This document shows, piece after piece, positions 3,162 through 54,628 of a DNA stretch of 54,846 bases (its first letter is position 1; each line of letters opens with the position of its first letter). Origin of the DNA: Nostoc sp. DedSLP01 (GTDB taxonomy: Bacteria > Cyanobacteriota > Cyanobacteriia > Cyanobacteriales > Nostocaceae); contig JAVRCJ020000044.1 of the NCBI GenBank assembly GCA_034530875.2, positions 1-54,846 on the forward strand. Reading direction: 5' to 3'. Position numbers and translations under genes: made by a program. The notes below the pieces were generated by a model that ran no database searches, was not told the origin of the DNA, and saw nothing but the letters and a program-made list of their open reading frames with translations.

Positions 3162-3321
3162 GGGCTTTTTGCGAGCAATTGTAACCTAATTTATGGTGAC
3201 AGAAAATCTCTACCTTGACATGAGCATCAATTCTCAACAAGACGCACCTCATCTTTGCGTCCTGTTCATCAATGGGCTAGGGTTTCTGCTTAAATGGCTG
3301 TGAACTGTCTTTTTTAACAGG

Positions 3322-5025
3322 TTGAATGTGAATAGACAACGCTCATTCATCGGTTTTATTGTAGCTGGTGCGATCGCAGTGTTAGCGATTGCGATCGCAG
3401 GCTTTTACTGGTTTTTTCCTAAAAGCCCCGCTAACCTCATTGCCCCTACTTCCCAACCTGGTGCAACAATATTCATATCAAAACTGGCTCCTGTGATGGC
3501 GTCATTGCTGACGAATCCTGACCGTTTGCAAGCACTGGAACGGGACGGAGAAATATCGAAACTCCAAACTAGTTTCTTAGCTAAGAGTGGCATAGATTAC
3601 CAACAAGATGTTCAATCTTGGTTAGGGAACGAAATTTCATTGGCTGTCACTACGCTAGACATCGATCGCGATCCAGAAAATGGGCAACAGCCGGGGTATC
3701 TTTTAGCACTTGCAACCAAGCAACCAGAAAAAAGTCGCGAGTTTGTCGAGTTGTTATTTTCCAAACGAGCCTTAGCTGGGGCAAACTTAAATGTTGAAGA
3801 ATACAAAGGCATAAAGGTAATTCATGACAACCAAGAACCGATTGTAGAAAATAAAACCCAAATTCCCAAATCTCAAATCGAAGATAATTTAGCTGGTGCT
3901 GTTGTTGGCGAAAATTTTGTTTTATTTGCTAACGATCCTAAAGTACTAAAAGATGCCATCAATAACATCCAAGCACCAGATTTAAATTTGACTAGCTCTC
4001 CCCAATACCAAAAAGCTATTAAACAATTGCCCAAGGGAAGTTTAGCAGTGGCTTTCTTGAATCTTCCCATAGTAGCAAAATGGCAAGGATTAGAACTGCC
4101 AGAGCAACTTAGTTATGACAGCGAAATCATTTCTTTAGTCTTAAACTCAAAAGGATTGTTGGCAGAAACCGCCTTTTTGTCTTCATCAGAAATTGCCTCT
4201 CCATCTCCAACACTAACTAAACCTGTAGGAGCATTGCAATATCTGCCAGCATCAGCAGGTTTAGCAATTTCTGGCTCAAATTTGAGTAACTTGGGCAACA
4301 GCAATCTAGCAAAACTCTGGAAACAAGTAACAGCAACTATATATGGTTCTAAGGAAGATGTAGTTTCTCAGTTTGCTAAACCTTTAGGCGATACTCAAAA
4401 AAGCTGGGGAATAAATTTACCAGAGGATATTTTCAGTTGGGTGCAGGGAGAATATGCCATAGCATTGTTACCCGAAGAAGAAACAAACCCTCATTGGATT
4501 TTTGTGGTGGAAAAATCCGAGAGTGTAGAACAAGGCGTAGCACGCTTAGATGCGATCGCTTCCTCTAATGGACTCACTATTAGTCCCCTAACAATAGACA
4601 ACCAAAAAATTTCTGCTTGGACAGAGTTAACCACAGCTAGTAAAAAAAATAATGACAAAGACGGAGTATCATTCAACATTGAAACAAAAGTGCGGGGAGC
4701 GCATACAACCTTAGGAAATTACGAAGTTTTTACCTCTGACCTTGAGACAATGGATAAAGTTATTACAGCGAAGGATAATTCCTTAATTAATAATCCCAAG
4801 TTTCAAGATAGTATTGCTGCGATTCCTCGACCAAACCAAGGTTACATCTATTTTGATTGGACAAAAAGCCAGAATTTGTTAGAGCGTCAAATCCCAATTC
4901 TCAAGTTAGTGGAAGTTTTAGGGAAACCGTTTTTTAATAATCTGCGATCGCTCACAGTCAGTAGTTACGGAACTGATACAGAAGCGCTCAAAGGTGGCGT
5001 TTTCTTACAACTTAATAAGTCCTGA
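3322..5025 (+). CDS. Membrane-anchored periplasmic protein (DUF3352-like)
   Basis: 567-aa ORF with one N-terminal TM helix and the motifs DVQSWLGNE and DIFSWVQGE. Confidence 0.75.
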   Translation: MNVNRQRSFIGFIVAGAIAVLAIAIAGFYWFFPKSPANLIAPTSQPGATIFISKLAPVMASLLTNPDRLQALERDGEISKLQTSFLAKSGIDYQQDVQSWLGNEISLAVTTLDIDRDPENGQQPGYLLALATKQPEKSREFVELLFSKRALAGANLNVEEYKGIKVIHDNQEPIVENKTQIPKSQIEDNLAGAVVGENFVLFANDPKVLKDAINNIQAPDLNLTSSPQYQKAIKQLPKGSLAVAFLNLPIVAKWQGLELPEQLSYDSEIISLVLNSKGLLAETAFLSSSEIASPSPTLTKPVGALQYLPASAGLAISGSNLSNLGNSNLAKLWKQVTATIYGSKEDVVSQFAKPLGDTQKSWGINLPEDIFSWVQGEYAIALLPEEETNPHWIFVVEKSESVEQGVARLDAIASSNGLTISPLTIDNQKISAWTELTTASKKNNDKDGVSFNIETKVRGAHTTLGNYEVFTSDLETMDKVITAKDNSLINNPKFQDSIAAIPRPNQGYIYFDWTKSQNLLERQIPILKLVEVLGKPFFNNLRSLTVSSYGTDTEALKGGVFLQLNKS

Positions 5026-11558: not shown

Positions 11559-12785
11559 ATGGTTCAAAAGCTTGAAAGAAAACGCCAGAGTGCAGGGTTT
11601 CCAGAGACTGCCCCTGCTGCTAATCCTGTATTTTTTAGAACCTATAGCCGCCGTACTAAGGCAGGGTTGAGGGAAACATGGGATGAGGTATGCGATCGCA
11701 CTTTACAAGGTTTAATCGAGTTGGGAAAACTCGCAAGAGAAGAAGTTGCCATATTAGATCGGATGCAGCGCAATCTGAAAGCCATGCCTAGTGGACGCTG
11801 GTTATGGGTTGGCGGTACTGACTGGATTAGGAAGCCAAAGAATTTTTCCGGGGCTTATAATTGCACCTCCACCAACTTAGAAAACTGGAGTGCTTTCGGA
11901 TTAATGATGGATTTGGCAATGATGGGCTGTGGTACTGGAGCCGTCTTAGAACCACAATACATTAACCAATTGCCCCCCATCCGTAACCACTTGAACATCA
12001 CCGTACAAGGTGAAATTGGTAGTACTGTTAAAAATGAGCGTCGTGAATATACACAAACACATATAGAAGGTAACAAGGTTACTATCCACGTTGGAGATAG
12101 CCGTGAAGGTTGGGTTGAATCATATCAAACCCTGTTGGAACTTTCCACTAACGAAAGTTTTTCAGGAGATGTTGAAGTATTAGTTGATATCAGCGATGTT
12201 CGTAAAGCAGGAGAAACCCTCAACGGCTTTGGAGGAGTTGCAAATCCTGTGAAATTGCCAGGACTTTATCAGCGTTGTGCATCTATTCTGAATAAAGCCA
12301 AAGGACGACAATTAACTTCAGTTGAATGTTGTCTATTAATTGACCAGGCCGCTGTAACAATTGTTGCAGGAAATATCCGGAGGAGTGCGGGTATGCGTCA
12401 GTTTACTGCTAACGACAGTCTGGGAGCAACAGCCAAAGATAATTTATGGCAACAAGATGCAGAGGGTAACTGGCGAATCGATCCAGAACGCGATGCTTTG
12501 AGAATGGCAAATCATACCAGAGTTTTTCACCGCAAGCCGACATTAGAAGAATGTATTGGTGCTGTTCGCAAACAATATTATAGTGGCGAGGGTGCTATTC
12601 AATGGGCTGGTGAAGCTGTAGCCAGAGCAAATATAGATTTGTTGCCAACACAAGCATTAAAAGTAGATTTTTTGAATGCTTATAACCAAGGCACAGCAAA
12701 AGAATGGTTGCAAGAACGCTATCCTCAACTTGATGCTAAAGAGCTAGAACATCGTTTGGCTCGCTATGGGCTAAATCCGTGTGGT
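11559..12785 (+). CDS. nrdJ: Adenosylcobalamin-dependent ribonucleoside-triphosphate reductase, exon 1
   Basis: VFFRTYSR, PSGRWLW, YNCT and GNIRRSA motifs; ends at GLNPCG (catalytic Cys). Confidence 0.93.
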
Positions 12786-13125
12786 AATTGATTTTGCCTC
12801 ACGTTAAAAACCTCGCAAAAACGGGGAAAGCTGAGATGCTAATCCCGTGGTAATCAAAGGAAATAAAAAGCCTTTGACACCGTACAGCGTAGAGAGTGAA
12901 ACTAGATAATACCAATTCGTAATTCGTAATTTGCAATGGGCTTCACACCGTTGCTGGTATTAAACCTAAAATAGGGCTCTAGACTATAATCTCTCCAAGA
13001 GTGCGGGGGCAAATGTGAAAAATACTTTTATTCTTAAAGTCACATTTGCAAAATGTACGCGGAGCTACTGCAAATCATCAAGCAGTAGAACTAAAGGATA
13101 AAAAGCCTTTAGGATAACAAAATTG
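12786..13125 (+). ncRNA. Group I self-splicing intron (340 nt, no ORF) in nrdJ
   Basis: 5' exon ends in U and intron ends in G. P1 CGUGUGGU/GCCUCACG with U.G at the splice site; P10 UGAUUUU/GAAAUCA; P3 CCUCGCA/UGCGGGG; P4 CGGG/CCCG; P7 CAGCGUA/UACGCG. Removal restores NPCGEII. Confidence 0.9.
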
Positions 13126-14199
13126 GAAATCATCGGCTCTAATTTTCACTGTAATTTGTCTGAGGTTCACCTCAATCAAATTGACCCATTTAACTACAAA
13201 GAACAAGAGGAGGCTTTCACCGCTGGGGCGTTATCTGTAGCAGCACTTTTAAACCACAAATTCCAAGAACCACGCTATCAATACAGCCGGGAATTAGACC
13301 CAATTGTGGGAGTTTCTTTTACAGGTTTATTTGATTTCTTCGTTCATGCTTTTGGTGTTGATTGGCTGCGCTGGTGGGAAGCGGGAAGACCTGCAACTCC
13401 ACAAGGATTAGCGTTTAAGCGGGAGGAGGAGAAATATTTAAGTTTTTGGAAAGATACCGTGCATCGAGTTGTTTGGGATTATTGCGATCGCCACAATCTC
13501 AAACGCCCAAATCGCTGCACCACAGTCCAACCTAGCGGCACTAAAGCTTTATTAACTAATGCTAGTTCCGGATGGCATCCCCCCAAAGCACAGCGATTTA
13601 TTCGCCGGATTACTTTCGGGAAAAATGACCCCGTAGCTTTAGCTTGTATTGACTACGGTTACAATGTTATTCCCTCACAATCAGACAAAGACGAACACGG
13701 CAATTTACTCAACGATCCTTTCGATCCACGCGTCAGCGAATGGTTAGTAGAAATCCCCGTTGCTGTATCTTGGGCTGATTTACCTGGGGCTGATGAAATT
13801 GATGTTTCTAAGTTTTCAGTTTTAGCCCAATTTGATTTTGTCCAGCAAGTTCAGCGCCACTATGTGAGCCACAACACATCAGCAACTTTAGAACTGCGCT
13901 CTGATGAAATCGAAAGCTTGGGACAGCGAATTTACGATAGCATTCAAAATGATGAAGGATATATTTCCGCAGCTCTTTTAGCCAGGTTTGACGATTTGCA
14001 ATCCTTCCCACGTTTGCCGTTTGAACCGATAGATAAAGCAACGTGCGATCGCTTAACTCAAGAAGTTAAAGCACGACGTAAAACAGATGATTTCTGTGGA
14101 GCTTTAAGCCGCTATGATTTAGGTGAAATGTCAGAAGCCGGCCCTAGCGGCTGTGACTCTGATAAGTGTATGTTTCCTGCTCAGGAACCAAGCTCATAG
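13126..14199 (+). CDS. nrdJ: Ribonucleoside-triphosphate reductase, exon 2
   Basis: Begins EIIGSNFHCNLSE; TTVQPSGT motif; C-terminal redox pair GCDSDKC. Confidence 0.93.
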   Translation, partial: EIIGSNFHCNLSEVHLNQIDPFNYKEQEEAFTAGALSVAALLNHKFQEPRYQYSRELDPIVGVSFTGLFDFFVHAFGVDWLRWWEAGRPATPQGLAFKREEEKYLSFWKDTVHRVVWDYCDRHNLKRPNRCTTVQPSGTKALLTNASSGWHPPKAQRFIRRITFGKNDPVALACIDYGYNVIPSQSDKDEHGNLLNDPFDPRVSEWLVEIPVAVSWADLPGADEIDVSKFSVLAQFDFVQQVQRHYVSHNTSATLELRSDEIESLGQRIYDSIQNDEGYISAALLARFDDLQSFPRLPFEPIDKATCDRLTQEVKARRKTDDFCGALSRYDLGEMSEAGPSGCDSDKCMFPAQEPSS

Positions 14200-53577: not shown

Positions 53578-53671
53578 TCCAACGTGCATTCAAGTAGTAT
53601 ATTACCAATCGCCAAAAGGCTAGCTAGGATTGCATTTCTTAATTTTGAATTTTGAATTTTGAATTGTTTAG

Positions 53672-53742
53672 TGGGTGGTATAGGAGTCGAACCTATTTCT
53701 GCGGATTAAAAGCCCGCTGCACAGCCGGTATGCCAACCACCC
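53672..53742 (-). tRNA. trnK: tRNA-Lys(UUU), array member
   Basis: Acceptor GGGTGGT/ACCACCC, anticodon loop CTTTTAA, T-loop TTCGACT. Confidence 0.85.
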
Positions 53743-53818
53743 TAGTGAATTTGAAAAAGAAATGAGCAAGTGCGATCGTATTACATCGCAAATTTGTAAC
53801 ACAAACACTACATATTAA

Positions 53819-53890
53819 TCCACCAGGGAGGTACTGCCCCTCCTATTTCTGTGTTATCAGCACAGTGCCTCGCTTTTCGGCTTCAGGTGG
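53819..53890 (-). tRNA. trnI: tRNA-Ile(GAU), atypical T-loop
   Basis: Anticodon stem CTGTG/CACAG with loop CTGATAA; T-loop GGCAGTA; one U-U mismatch in the acceptor stem. Confidence 0.7.
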
Positions 53891-53895
53891 AAAAG

Positions 53896-53978
53896 TGGAA
53901 GATGGAGGAATCGAACCCCTACAGTTGCCCATACCCTGGTTTTCAAGACCAGTTGCCGTCCATTCAGCGGCATCTTCC
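53896..53978 (-). tRNA. trnS: tRNA-Ser(UGA), atypical fold
   Basis: Anticodon loop CTTGAAA, long variable arm, GGAAGATG/CATCTTCC acceptor. Confidence 0.75.
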
Positions 53979-53985
53979 ATTCAGG

Positions 53986-54060
53986 GGCGTCTGACGGGAC
54001 TCGAACCCGTTATGACTGGTTCCACAAACCAGCGCCTCGACCACTTTGGCTTCAGACACC
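53986..54060 (-). tRNA. trnH: tRNA-His(GUG)
   Basis: Encoded G-1:C73 pair, anticodon GTG. Confidence 0.88.
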
Positions 54061-54065
54061 ATCAG

Positions 54066-54139
54066 TGGAATCAATGGGACTTGAACCCATGACCTCCTGC
54101 TTGCAAGGCAGGCGCTCTAGCCAACTGAGCTATGACCCC
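54066..54139 (-). tRNA. trnA: tRNA-Ala(UGC)
   Basis: G3.U70 identity pair, anticodon TGC, A73. Confidence 0.92.
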
Positions 54140-54235
54140 ATCAAAAAAGTAAAAAGAGCAAAGTAAAAAGTAAAAACAAAGAGAAATAATTAAATTCATT
54201 CTTTTGATTTTTGACTTTTAACTTTTGACTTGTTT

Positions 54236-54312
54236 TGGTGGGAGTGGTAGGACTCGAACCCACAACTATCAAGGTAGAAACTCGAAGCTCTATTCCATTG
54301 AGCTACACTCCC
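54236..54312 (-). tRNA. trnR: tRNA-Arg(UCU), CCA encoded
   Basis: Cloverleaf, anticodon TCT, 3' ACCA. Confidence 0.9.
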
Positions 54313-54318
54313 AAGATT

Positions 54319-54394
54319 TGGTAGTCCTGGCAGGAATTGAACCCGCAACACCCTTCTTGTAAGGAAGACACTCTACCAATTGAGCTACAGGACT
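54319..54394 (-). tRNA. trnV: tRNA-Val(UAC), CCA encoded
   Basis: Cloverleaf, anticodon TAC, 3' ACCA. Confidence 0.9.
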
Positions 54395-54399
54395 ACGCA

Positions 54400-54471
54400 A
54401 GCGAGTGGAGGGACTTGAACCCACGCACTGAGTATGGCGTACTCAGATGCTACCAATTACATCACACCCGC
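54400..54471 (-). tRNA. trnG: tRNA-Gly(GCC), atypical or possibly decaying
   Basis: Acceptor GCGGGTG/CACTCGC, U73; loop ACGCCAT has C33; U-U mismatch in the T-stem. Confidence 0.7.
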
Positions 54472-54480
54472 AAGTTTTAG

Positions 54481-54551
54481 AGCGGACGGCGAGATTTGAA
54501 CTCGCACGAAGACGGTGGAAACGTCTCATGCTGCCGTTACATCACACCCGC
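54481..54551 (-). tRNA. trnG: tRNA-Gly(UCC)
   Basis: Cloverleaf, anticodon TCC, U73. Confidence 0.88.
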
Positions 54552-54555
54552 ATCA

Positions 54556-54628
54556 AGCTGGTAACAGGAATTGAACCTGCAACCTACTGATTACAAGTCA
54601 GTTGCTCTGCCTATTGAGCTACACCAGC
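54556..54628 (-). tRNA. trnT: tRNA-Thr(UGU)
   Basis: Canonical cloverleaf, anticodon TGT. Confidence 0.93.

Follow-up and report, generated by a model that had tools for sequence, protein, structure and literature searches.

An ORF-less group I intron at the NPCG/E site of nrdJ in Nostoc sp. DedSLP01 and its relatives in Cyanobacteria, Bacillota, and viral contigs

In Nostoc sp. DedSLP01, the gene for the adenosylcobalamin-dependent ribonucleoside-triphosphate reductase is read by gene finders as two open reading frames, which raises the question of what separates them and how a complete enzyme can be made. Within the window (the whole 54,846-nt stretch of contig JAVRCJ020000044.1 analyzed here; all features below are on its + strand), nrdJ exon 1 occupies positions 11559 to 12785 (409 codons, ending with NPCG) and exon 2 positions 13126 to 14199 (357 codons plus a stop, starting with EIIG). 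The interval between them, 12786 to 13125, is 340 nt long, with exact coordinates in the window sequence: exon 1 ends with CTA AAT CCG TGT GGT, the interval runs from aat tga ttt tgc ctc acg to aca aaa ttg, and exon 2 begins with GAA ATC ATC GGC. The two halves cover positions 16 to 378 and 379 to 723 of the TIGR02505 profile for this enzyme with zero gap and zero overlap, so that removal of the interval restores a 766-codon gene with NPCGE intact; the in-frame NPCG/E join proposed from the sequence alone is thereby borne out. In the monomeric B12-dependent ribonucleotide reductase (RNR), the insertion falls between Gly409 and Glu410, and we take the Cys of NPCG to be the thiyl-radical residue and the following Glu to be the general base of this enzyme. 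The nrdJ gene is present in a single copy, and a search of this 99.8% complete genome turned up neither a class I small subunit nor a class III enzyme, and no second class II or other PF02867 protein. Reading is open in the exons on both sides of the interval; ORF callers yield products of 410 and 358 aa, and public protein collections store the two halves as separate proteins.

The interval has stop codons in all six frames, and its length is not a multiple of three; on these grounds, together with the group I core and the terminal G described below, an intein, a group II intron, and an insertion sequence (IS) were rejected. Its longest stop-free frame is 51 codons, in agreement with the earlier statement that it holds no ORF for a homing endonuclease or an IS. 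Promoter and terminator scans gave results at or below chance level. The interval can be folded by hand into a group I intron of the IA-like type that has no P2 and no ORF. P1 (12778 to 12803) pairs the exon nucleotides 12778 to 12785 with the guide 12796 to 12803 through 7 pairs and one U-U mismatch, and its U12785-G12796 pair marks the 5′ splice site. The in-frame TGA at 12789 to 12791, the second intron codon, lies in the 5′ strand of P10 (12789 to 12795), which forms 7 pairs with 13126 to 13132. The sequence-only reading had named these same features, namely the splice-site U-G pair, P10, and an early UGA in unspliced RNA, together with recognizable P3, P4, and P7 and a final G, and every one of them stands.

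Indeed, all of P3, P4, P5, P6, P7, P7.1, P7.2, P8, P9, and P9.1 pair. The segment from 12811 to 12881 includes the 5′ strand of P3 (12811 to 12816), P4 (12821 to 12826 with 12843 to 12848), P5 (12829 to 12840, with a GNRA-type loop), and P6/P6a (12849 to 12881). The 5′ strand of P7 (12885 to 12891) contains A12886 as a bulge and G12887 as one partner in the guanosine-binding pair, and P7 as a whole reads C-A-GCGUA/UACGCG, with G12887-C13060 as the guanosine site. It is followed by the P7.1/P7.2 extension (12892 to 12995), whose loop (about 12908 to 12977) includes an addition of ~53 nt with AATTCGT heptamer repeats. The 3′ strand of P3 (13003 to 13008) and P8 (13009 to 13049) fill 13003 to 13049, and the remainder, 13050 to 13125, comprises J8/7 (AAAAUG), the 3′ strand of P7 (13056 to 13061), P9 (13065 to 13088), P9.1 (13091 to 13112), and the terminal G13125. 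Subgroup IA, as described by Michel and Westhof (1990), is defined by P7.1 and P7.2 helices between P7 and the 3′ strand of P3. The intron has both of these helices in that position and lacks P2. The fold of the region is unusually stable (z score of −6.6, with 0 of 100 shuffled sequences as stable), and a loose P3/P7 pseudoknot rule was satisfied by only 4 of 500 base shuffles.

Several details of the peripheral elements deserve mention. The P7.2 loop is 77 nt long in the window versus 24 nt in most congeners, and the genome contains 168 occurrences of its 14-mer repeat; a repeat of the genome has invaded this peripheral loop, and a related addition is found in three other members of the genus. 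P6a (12854 to 12877) and P9.1 are near-copies of a single hairpin with an AAAGG-A-rich loop-CCUUU arrangement, and Cyanobacteria and Bacillota alike have an almost constant P9.1 loop, UAAAAAG.

Covariation was assessed in a sequence-only alignment of 38 of the 59 distinct short homologues (30 cyanobacterial and 8 from Bacillota), leaving out the long forms and three introns with different cores. Paired cells make up 93.8% of this alignment versus 75.5% after shuffling and 35 to 47% for slid structures, the drawing having been made from the window sequence itself, which favors it over the slid controls. Two-sided changes are seen at 52 of the 79 proposed pairs, including P3 (99.6% paired) and P7 (100% paired), as well as 5 of 5 pairs in P7.1 and 3 of 5 in P7.2. 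The P4-P5-P6 domain with its A-rich J4/5 is present (94.6% and 87.5% paired), with a different P4 register in Bacillota. The G-C pair of the guanosine site is invariant (38 of 38), as is the U-G pair at the 5′ splice site (38 of 38), the invariance of P1 being partly built in by the way the loci were selected. The first pair of P7 varies among C-G, G-C, and A-U, and the bulged A becomes C in the A-U forms. Such a joint switch of first pair and bulge is a known rule of group I introns. An unguided RNAalifold run independently recovers P1, P3, P4, P5, P7.1, P7.2, P9, and P9.1. Covariation in P10 is modest (a mean of 6.25 pairs versus 5.34 with swapped exons), and one compensatory change in P1 is found in the viral contig L270. 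The terminal G is present in 28 of the 30 loci whose boundaries come from exon alignments alone, the two other loci departing from it because a downstream intein mis-set their boundaries; in introns found by pattern, the terminal G is part of the search rule and hence is not evidence. All 89 family introns with both ends located have a stop in frame as their second or third codon.

Searching the window against Rfam, both at the gathering threshold and at E ≤ 10, returned no match to the intron, only chance matches to SAM_alpha and GlsR6. According to the sequence-only reading, the lack of a covariance-model hit would speak against a group I intron. There is indeed no Rfam match, yet the group I model, RF00028, misses the whole family: none of 18 family introns (20 loci were scanned, 18 of which hold the family) reaches gathering, with one at 33.7 bits. 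The model is blind to the NPCG/E intron family, which is a matter of score and not a mechanistic feature. Two other group I introns of the same genome pass the Rfam threshold (G000:C24:103907-104149 and C31:74085-74375), and the nrdJ genes of some Bacillota contain further Rfam-detectable group I introns besides the one at NPCG/E (L037:1384-1809 and 3272-3571; L032:1509-1833). Elsewhere in the window, at the contig end, at least 9 tRNA genes are clustered at 53671 to 54628 on the − strand; Rfam and ARAGORN each find one that the other misses (54400 to 54471 and 53895 to 53978).

Evidence of splicing comes from RNA data of relatives that are about 90 to 95% alike, in the form of contigs rather than reads and not from the strain of the window. 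Ten runs contained small shares, and four RNA runs (X1, X2, X3, and X7) were compared at 80% likeness. One X7 contig (depth of 493.8, with 30 letters on the short side) links 12785 directly to 13126, exactly and unambiguously, and a second one passes from exon 1 into the intron (depth of 26, contig depth being no measure of splicing efficiency); both forms branch off a single upstream exon contig. In X3, for which the listing has no exon-exon contig, contigs break at 12785 and at 13126, the intron stands as a separate contig, and 13125 is linked to 12786 without an extra letter by a contig of 60 nt, again with 30 letters on the short side. We read the end-to-start junction, one contig of one run of a relative, as a full-length intron circle. 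X1 and X2 contain only the unspliced form, on long contigs that are perhaps DNA derived. The exact spliced junction and the end-to-start junction are thus each seen in one of the four runs.

These data bear on two other ways of looking at the locus. The X7 junction might have come from a second, intronless strain and the X3 circle might be a reverse-transcription artifact, in which case the intron could be inactive and nrdJ a pseudogene. The data are contigs only, compared at 80% likeness, and empty alleles do occur in 65 of 201 genomes of the family, but the same upstream exon contig feeds both X7 forms, among the 127 genus genomes, 123 gave a match and none of these was seen to have an allele free of both intron and intein, and the exons are open in a genome where no other RNR was found. 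We consider this explanation very improbable. Even less credible is a naturally split gene, with halves translated separately and assembling as NrdJa/NrdJb around a spacer left by a decayed intron. The exon 2 frame does have an in-frame TTG at 13123, the ORF callers do yield two products, and X1 and X2 do show unspliced contigs only; nevertheless, the break would separate the catalytic Cys from the Glu, covariation of the core extends over 38 homologues, and the exact spliced junction exists in the RNA of a relative.

We conclude that the interval from 12786 to 13125 is a real intron and very likely a functional group I ribozyme that interrupts nrdJ, became ORF-less by deletion of an endonuclease gene, and lets the exons rejoin precisely. 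The assignment to group I and both splice sites, as first proposed, hold on pairing, covariation, and RNA contigs of relatives; the dependence of full-length NrdJ on splicing also holds, given the RNA junction in a relative, the covariation, and the only RNR found in the genome. Since nrdJ is whole only after RNA splicing, dNTP synthesis depends on a ribozyme, and what gene callers report as two ORFs is a single gene. Ribosomes on unspliced RNA would halt at the TGA two codons into the intron, leaving P1 and the core free to fold. By the established group I mechanism, a free guanosine bound at G12887-C13060 would then attack the U12785-G12796 site, after which G13125 would occupy the guanosine pocket while P10 aligns exon 2. 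Ligation of the exons at GGT/GAA, the junction seen in the RNA contigs of a relative, would yield the 766-codon frame, and a side path, represented by one contig, may join the last base of the intron to the first.

It is possible, if rather unlikely, that this real group I intron cannot splice alone and needs a host protein, either a chaperone or a maturase acting in trans. Neither P2 nor P5abc is there to stabilize the core, P7.2 has a repeat-filled addition, and the A-rich loops on P6a and P9.1 are conserved, all of which would suit a protein helper. Against it, all core helices and the guanosine site are intact, short copies without an ORF have been maintained in two phyla as well as in viral contigs, and no maturase-type ORF is tied to the NPCG/E family.

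How the intron came to be ORF-less can be seen in its relatives. Of 91 family introns examined, 89 had both ends found; 75 of these are 400 nt or shorter, 9 fall within 401 to 800 nt, and 5 are longer. Three of the 89 hold an ORF of 322 to 323 aa, which reaches from its start in the P8 stem to its end within P9.1. The lengths 1153, 506, 406, 384, 362, and 340 nt form a deletion series, in which the copies of 506, 406, 384, and 362 nt keep pieces of the ORF and P8 of the window copy fuses the first codons of the endonuclease gene to its last. The remnant of the endonuclease C terminus (13016 to 13114, 33 codons) overlaps the 3′ strand of P8, J8/7, the 3′ strand of P7, P9, and P9.1; it matches profile A2 with an E value of 3.8e-6, the only such match in the genome, and tblastn gives 59% over 32 aa. 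The ORF-less state is a derived one, with the endonuclease gene deleted and P8-P9.1 as its scar. An intact endonuclease ORF is absent from the window copy, and none was seen among the 97 intron-bearing genomes of the genus. Unable to home alone, the window intron descends from an ancestor of ~1150 nt with an endonuclease gene in the P8 loop; the homing of that ancestor is inferred, while the deletion series is directly seen.

The ORF of the relatives (311 to 323 aa) consists of an N-terminal domain of the PD-(D/E)XK type resembling T7 endonuclease I, followed by a NUMOD3 module, a Cys4 segment, and, at the C terminus, a helical domain. By sequence, it is closest to T7 endonuclease I (E value of 1e-3), with the motif RSSLE..PDF..EIK; its residues E22, D54, E64, and K66 align with that enzyme, and L017 has D in place of E64. 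NUMOD3 scores above the cutoff in L009, and a PHROG endonuclease is matched with an E value of 2e-9. Structural comparison gave middling matches to nuclease folds of the PD-(D/E)XK type (best Z score of 8.2; TnsA, 7.7; I-Bth0305I, 6.2), and Foldseek found nothing at E ≤ 0.001. In all, 74 homologues of the ORF were found. This ORF is found in the same loop of the Bacillota introns as well, where it shares 31% identity with the cyanobacterial one over 308 aa; the exon 2 proteins of the cyanobacterial and Bacillota hosts align over 45 residues at best (E value of 0.007). From its active-site motif and DNA-binding modules, this ORF is predicted to encode a homing endonuclease. Two other cargoes are known, an HNH ORF in P5 (L254) and a broken GIY-YIG ORF in P7.2 (L022). 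ORFs of at least 100 aa occur in 5 of the 89 family introns and are all of endonuclease types; a transposase or TnpB ORF, as in an IStron, is found neither in the window intron nor among the 89.

In the ORF-bearing introns L020:1671-2639 and L058:2686-3651, the P8 stem contains the start codon, the 3′ strand of P3 supplies the purine run before it, and the last ~30 codons overlap the 3′ strands of P8 and P7, P9, and P9.1, so that translation of the endonuclease would compete with folding of the intron. In L271 to L277, shorter relatives of the nuclease domain lie between pieces of phage RNR genes bounded by intein-like segments; these loci resemble the “fractured gene” loci reported in PMC2677866.

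The family is widespread. Genome counts were obtained with exact patterns and are therefore lower bounds. Within the genus, the short intron is found in 97 of 127 genomes and the 1.1-kb form in none, so the view that such introns are rare in bacterial chromosomal protein genes does not apply here. Within the family, 92 of 201 genomes have the intron (91 by pattern plus one variant), 65 have an empty site, and 29 have an intein at NP/CGE, as three nonoverlapping sets; the patterns left 15 genomes unassigned, and of five that were opened, two are empty with a variant codon. A loose intein pattern was discarded after matching 185 of the 201 genomes by chance, the count of 29 coming from the redone pattern. 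All 92 intron matches have CCG TGT GGT, even with other codons allowed by the pattern, versus 11 of the 65 empty alleles; this uniformity is explained by the P1 pairing, which requires these codons. In a sample of the phylum, 25 of 301 genomes match, from four families of one order, and among the matches listed, named records add Microcoleus, Microseira, Phormidesmis, and Prochlorothrix; in the GTDB pattern scan, about half of the matches listed are due to chance.

Outside the Cyanobacteria, nrdJ genes of the TIGR02504 type in Bacillota have the same intron start after NPCG, and in one family of Bacillaceae, the intron is present in 31 of 151 genomes (32 matches, one due to chance) versus 105 empty ones. 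The NPCG/E family is also carried on viral contigs, in the short form in L279 and with the full ORF in L270 (146 kb), so that short ORF-less copies are present in two phyla and in viral contigs. Other phage introns, as well as those in L032, L103, and L147, have the same site and the same guide with different cores. Viral nrdJ genes (L278 to L291) show several structurally different group I introns at NPCG/E that have the same guide, some with ORFs, and L286 has this guide within an apparent DNA polymerase gene. Eleven family introns (L210 to L216, L225, L226, L255, and L256) have the Bacillota-type P7 ACGCAUA and adjoin the Bacillota clade in a midpoint-rooted core tree.

A quick method was used for an unrooted intron-core tree of 122 rows, in which the Bacillota introns group in a single long-branched clade and those of the CAGACUA subtype in a second one (100*). 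On the unrooted FastTree of exon 2 (115 rows, with 9 left out as short or unplaced), this subtype needs 15 changes, 11 of them forced by starred branches, and the states of intron, empty site, and intein need 21. The pattern fits repeated horizontal gain, replacement, and loss, but being unrooted, the trees name no donor.

No genome was seen to hold the intron together with the NP/C intein, which is inserted two codons upstream and occurs in 29 of the 201 family genomes, kin not being independent; strong intron matches outside the pattern set comprise one intein-free variant and one fragment. An intein eight codons downstream does co-occur with the intron (L021, L030, L203, and L207). With the upstream intein in place, the Pro codon that takes part in P1 would be replaced, and we infer exclusion by that route. 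Intronless relatives (L262 to L266, from G050, G076, G099, G021, and G046) have inteins at three other nrdJ sites, before Ser of SAGMR, at NP/CGE, and at FH/CNL, with open frames of up to 1508 aa.

The intron might be retained because it regulates dNTP supply, through splicing sensitive to GTP or translation, and not solely as a stranded parasite. Its fixation in 97 of 127 genus genomes without an intact endonuclease seen, the early stop in 89 of 89 introns, and the occurrence of unspliced and circular forms in RNA would all agree with such a role. Yet 65 of the 201 family genomes manage without the intron, its subtypes replace one another along the exon tree, and the difficulty of precise loss accounts for its persistence, since only precise removal restores the active site. 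A regulatory role is unlikely.

On circumstantial grounds, the window intron is quite probably the same intron as that of the RNR (RIR) gene of Nostoc punctiforme, sharing with it the class of gene and the group of hosts, with one group I intron in each. Going by the title of their 2007 paper (J Bacteriol 189:2150), Meng, Zhang, and Liu reportedly described a short multi-copy insertion element in the latter. The group I intron in the class II RNR gene of N. punctiforme PCC 73102 is published (cited in PMC2853384 and its supplement table 8, PMC12702839, PMC3984707, and PMC1995217); the citing passages mention no endonuclease, family-wide spread, or Bacillota copies, and in one review it is cited for introns without P2, which the window intron also lacks. 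Unlike it, the window copy has no element in P8 and has the heptamer-repeat addition in P7.2. Three genomes of the genus show split matches, and the two that were aligned have a noncoding element of 70 to 95 nt in P8 with an 8-bp direct repeat; the element has at least 40 matches in each carrier genome and none in that of the window. Of the contrast drawn earlier with an IS-bearing N. punctiforme intron, the ORF-less state of the window copy stands, but the contrast itself probably dissolves, with congeners carrying the P8 element in the same intron.

The group I introns of T4 td, nrdB, and nrdD, Twort nrdE, and nrdE and nrdF of the Bacillus cereus group presumably share the IA layout with P7.1 and P7.2 seen in the window. 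As reported in PMC3984707, PMC3653736, and PMC2248736, they are also similar in lying in protein genes near conserved residues, with an early in-frame stop, and in having ORFs in peripheral loops. The NPCG/E family differs from them in its class II host enzyme, in its noncanonical P7, GCGUA/UACGC, and in being missed by RF00028; its cargo is mostly T7-endonuclease-I-like versus GIY-YIG or HNH, apart from the single broken GIY-YIG and the single HNH ORF. Another group I intron product with a restriction-like nuclease fold is the PD-(D/E)XK enzyme I-Ssp6803I of the tRNA-fMet intron (PMC1995217), a protein of 150 aa versus 311 to 323 aa, with NUMOD3, Cys4, and helical C-terminal domains, for the ORF of the relatives, which the window lacks. 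I-Bth0305I (PDB 3r3p; EDxHD) matches the N-terminal domain of this ORF over 79 residues with an rmsd of 3.3. Nuclear group I introns are reported to form full-length circles (PMC6274462) in which the last base is joined to the first without an extra letter, as in the X3 contig, which differs in representing a bacterial mRNA intron with one 60-nt contig from one run of a relative.

A 2014 review by Hausner (PMC3984707) treats group I introns in chromosomal protein genes as exceptions, lists six endonuclease families, and finds little evidence for horizontal movement of such introns between bacterial species (section 11). In the open-access literature, we found no account of the spread of the family, its endonuclease, its Bacillota members, or the intein exclusion. 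RNRdb states that it has curated more than 100 group I introns, and it or a 2025 intron database may already list family members. The kind of intron is already published, and the weight lies in the family-level picture more than in the window copy. A broader reading, on which we are evenly divided, is that NPCG/E hosts one of the commonest group I introns of bacterial chromosomal protein genes; that it moved between Cyanobacteria, Bacillota, and phages as a unit with an undescribed, modular T7-endonuclease-I-like homing endonuclease, which recognizes a short motif common to unalignable RNR subclasses; that it competes with the upstream intein, each destroying the target of the other as well as P1; and that it makes full-length circles in vivo.

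The family exposes an annotation blind spot at a site that is occupied in most Nostoc-like genomes and in a fifth of one family of Bacillaceae. The NPCG/E site presents endonucleases in intact, decaying, and lost states, cargoes of three unrelated types, carriage by phages, and an intein that excludes the intron, so that both the life cycle of homing and the competition between introns and inteins can be studied there in a natural setting.
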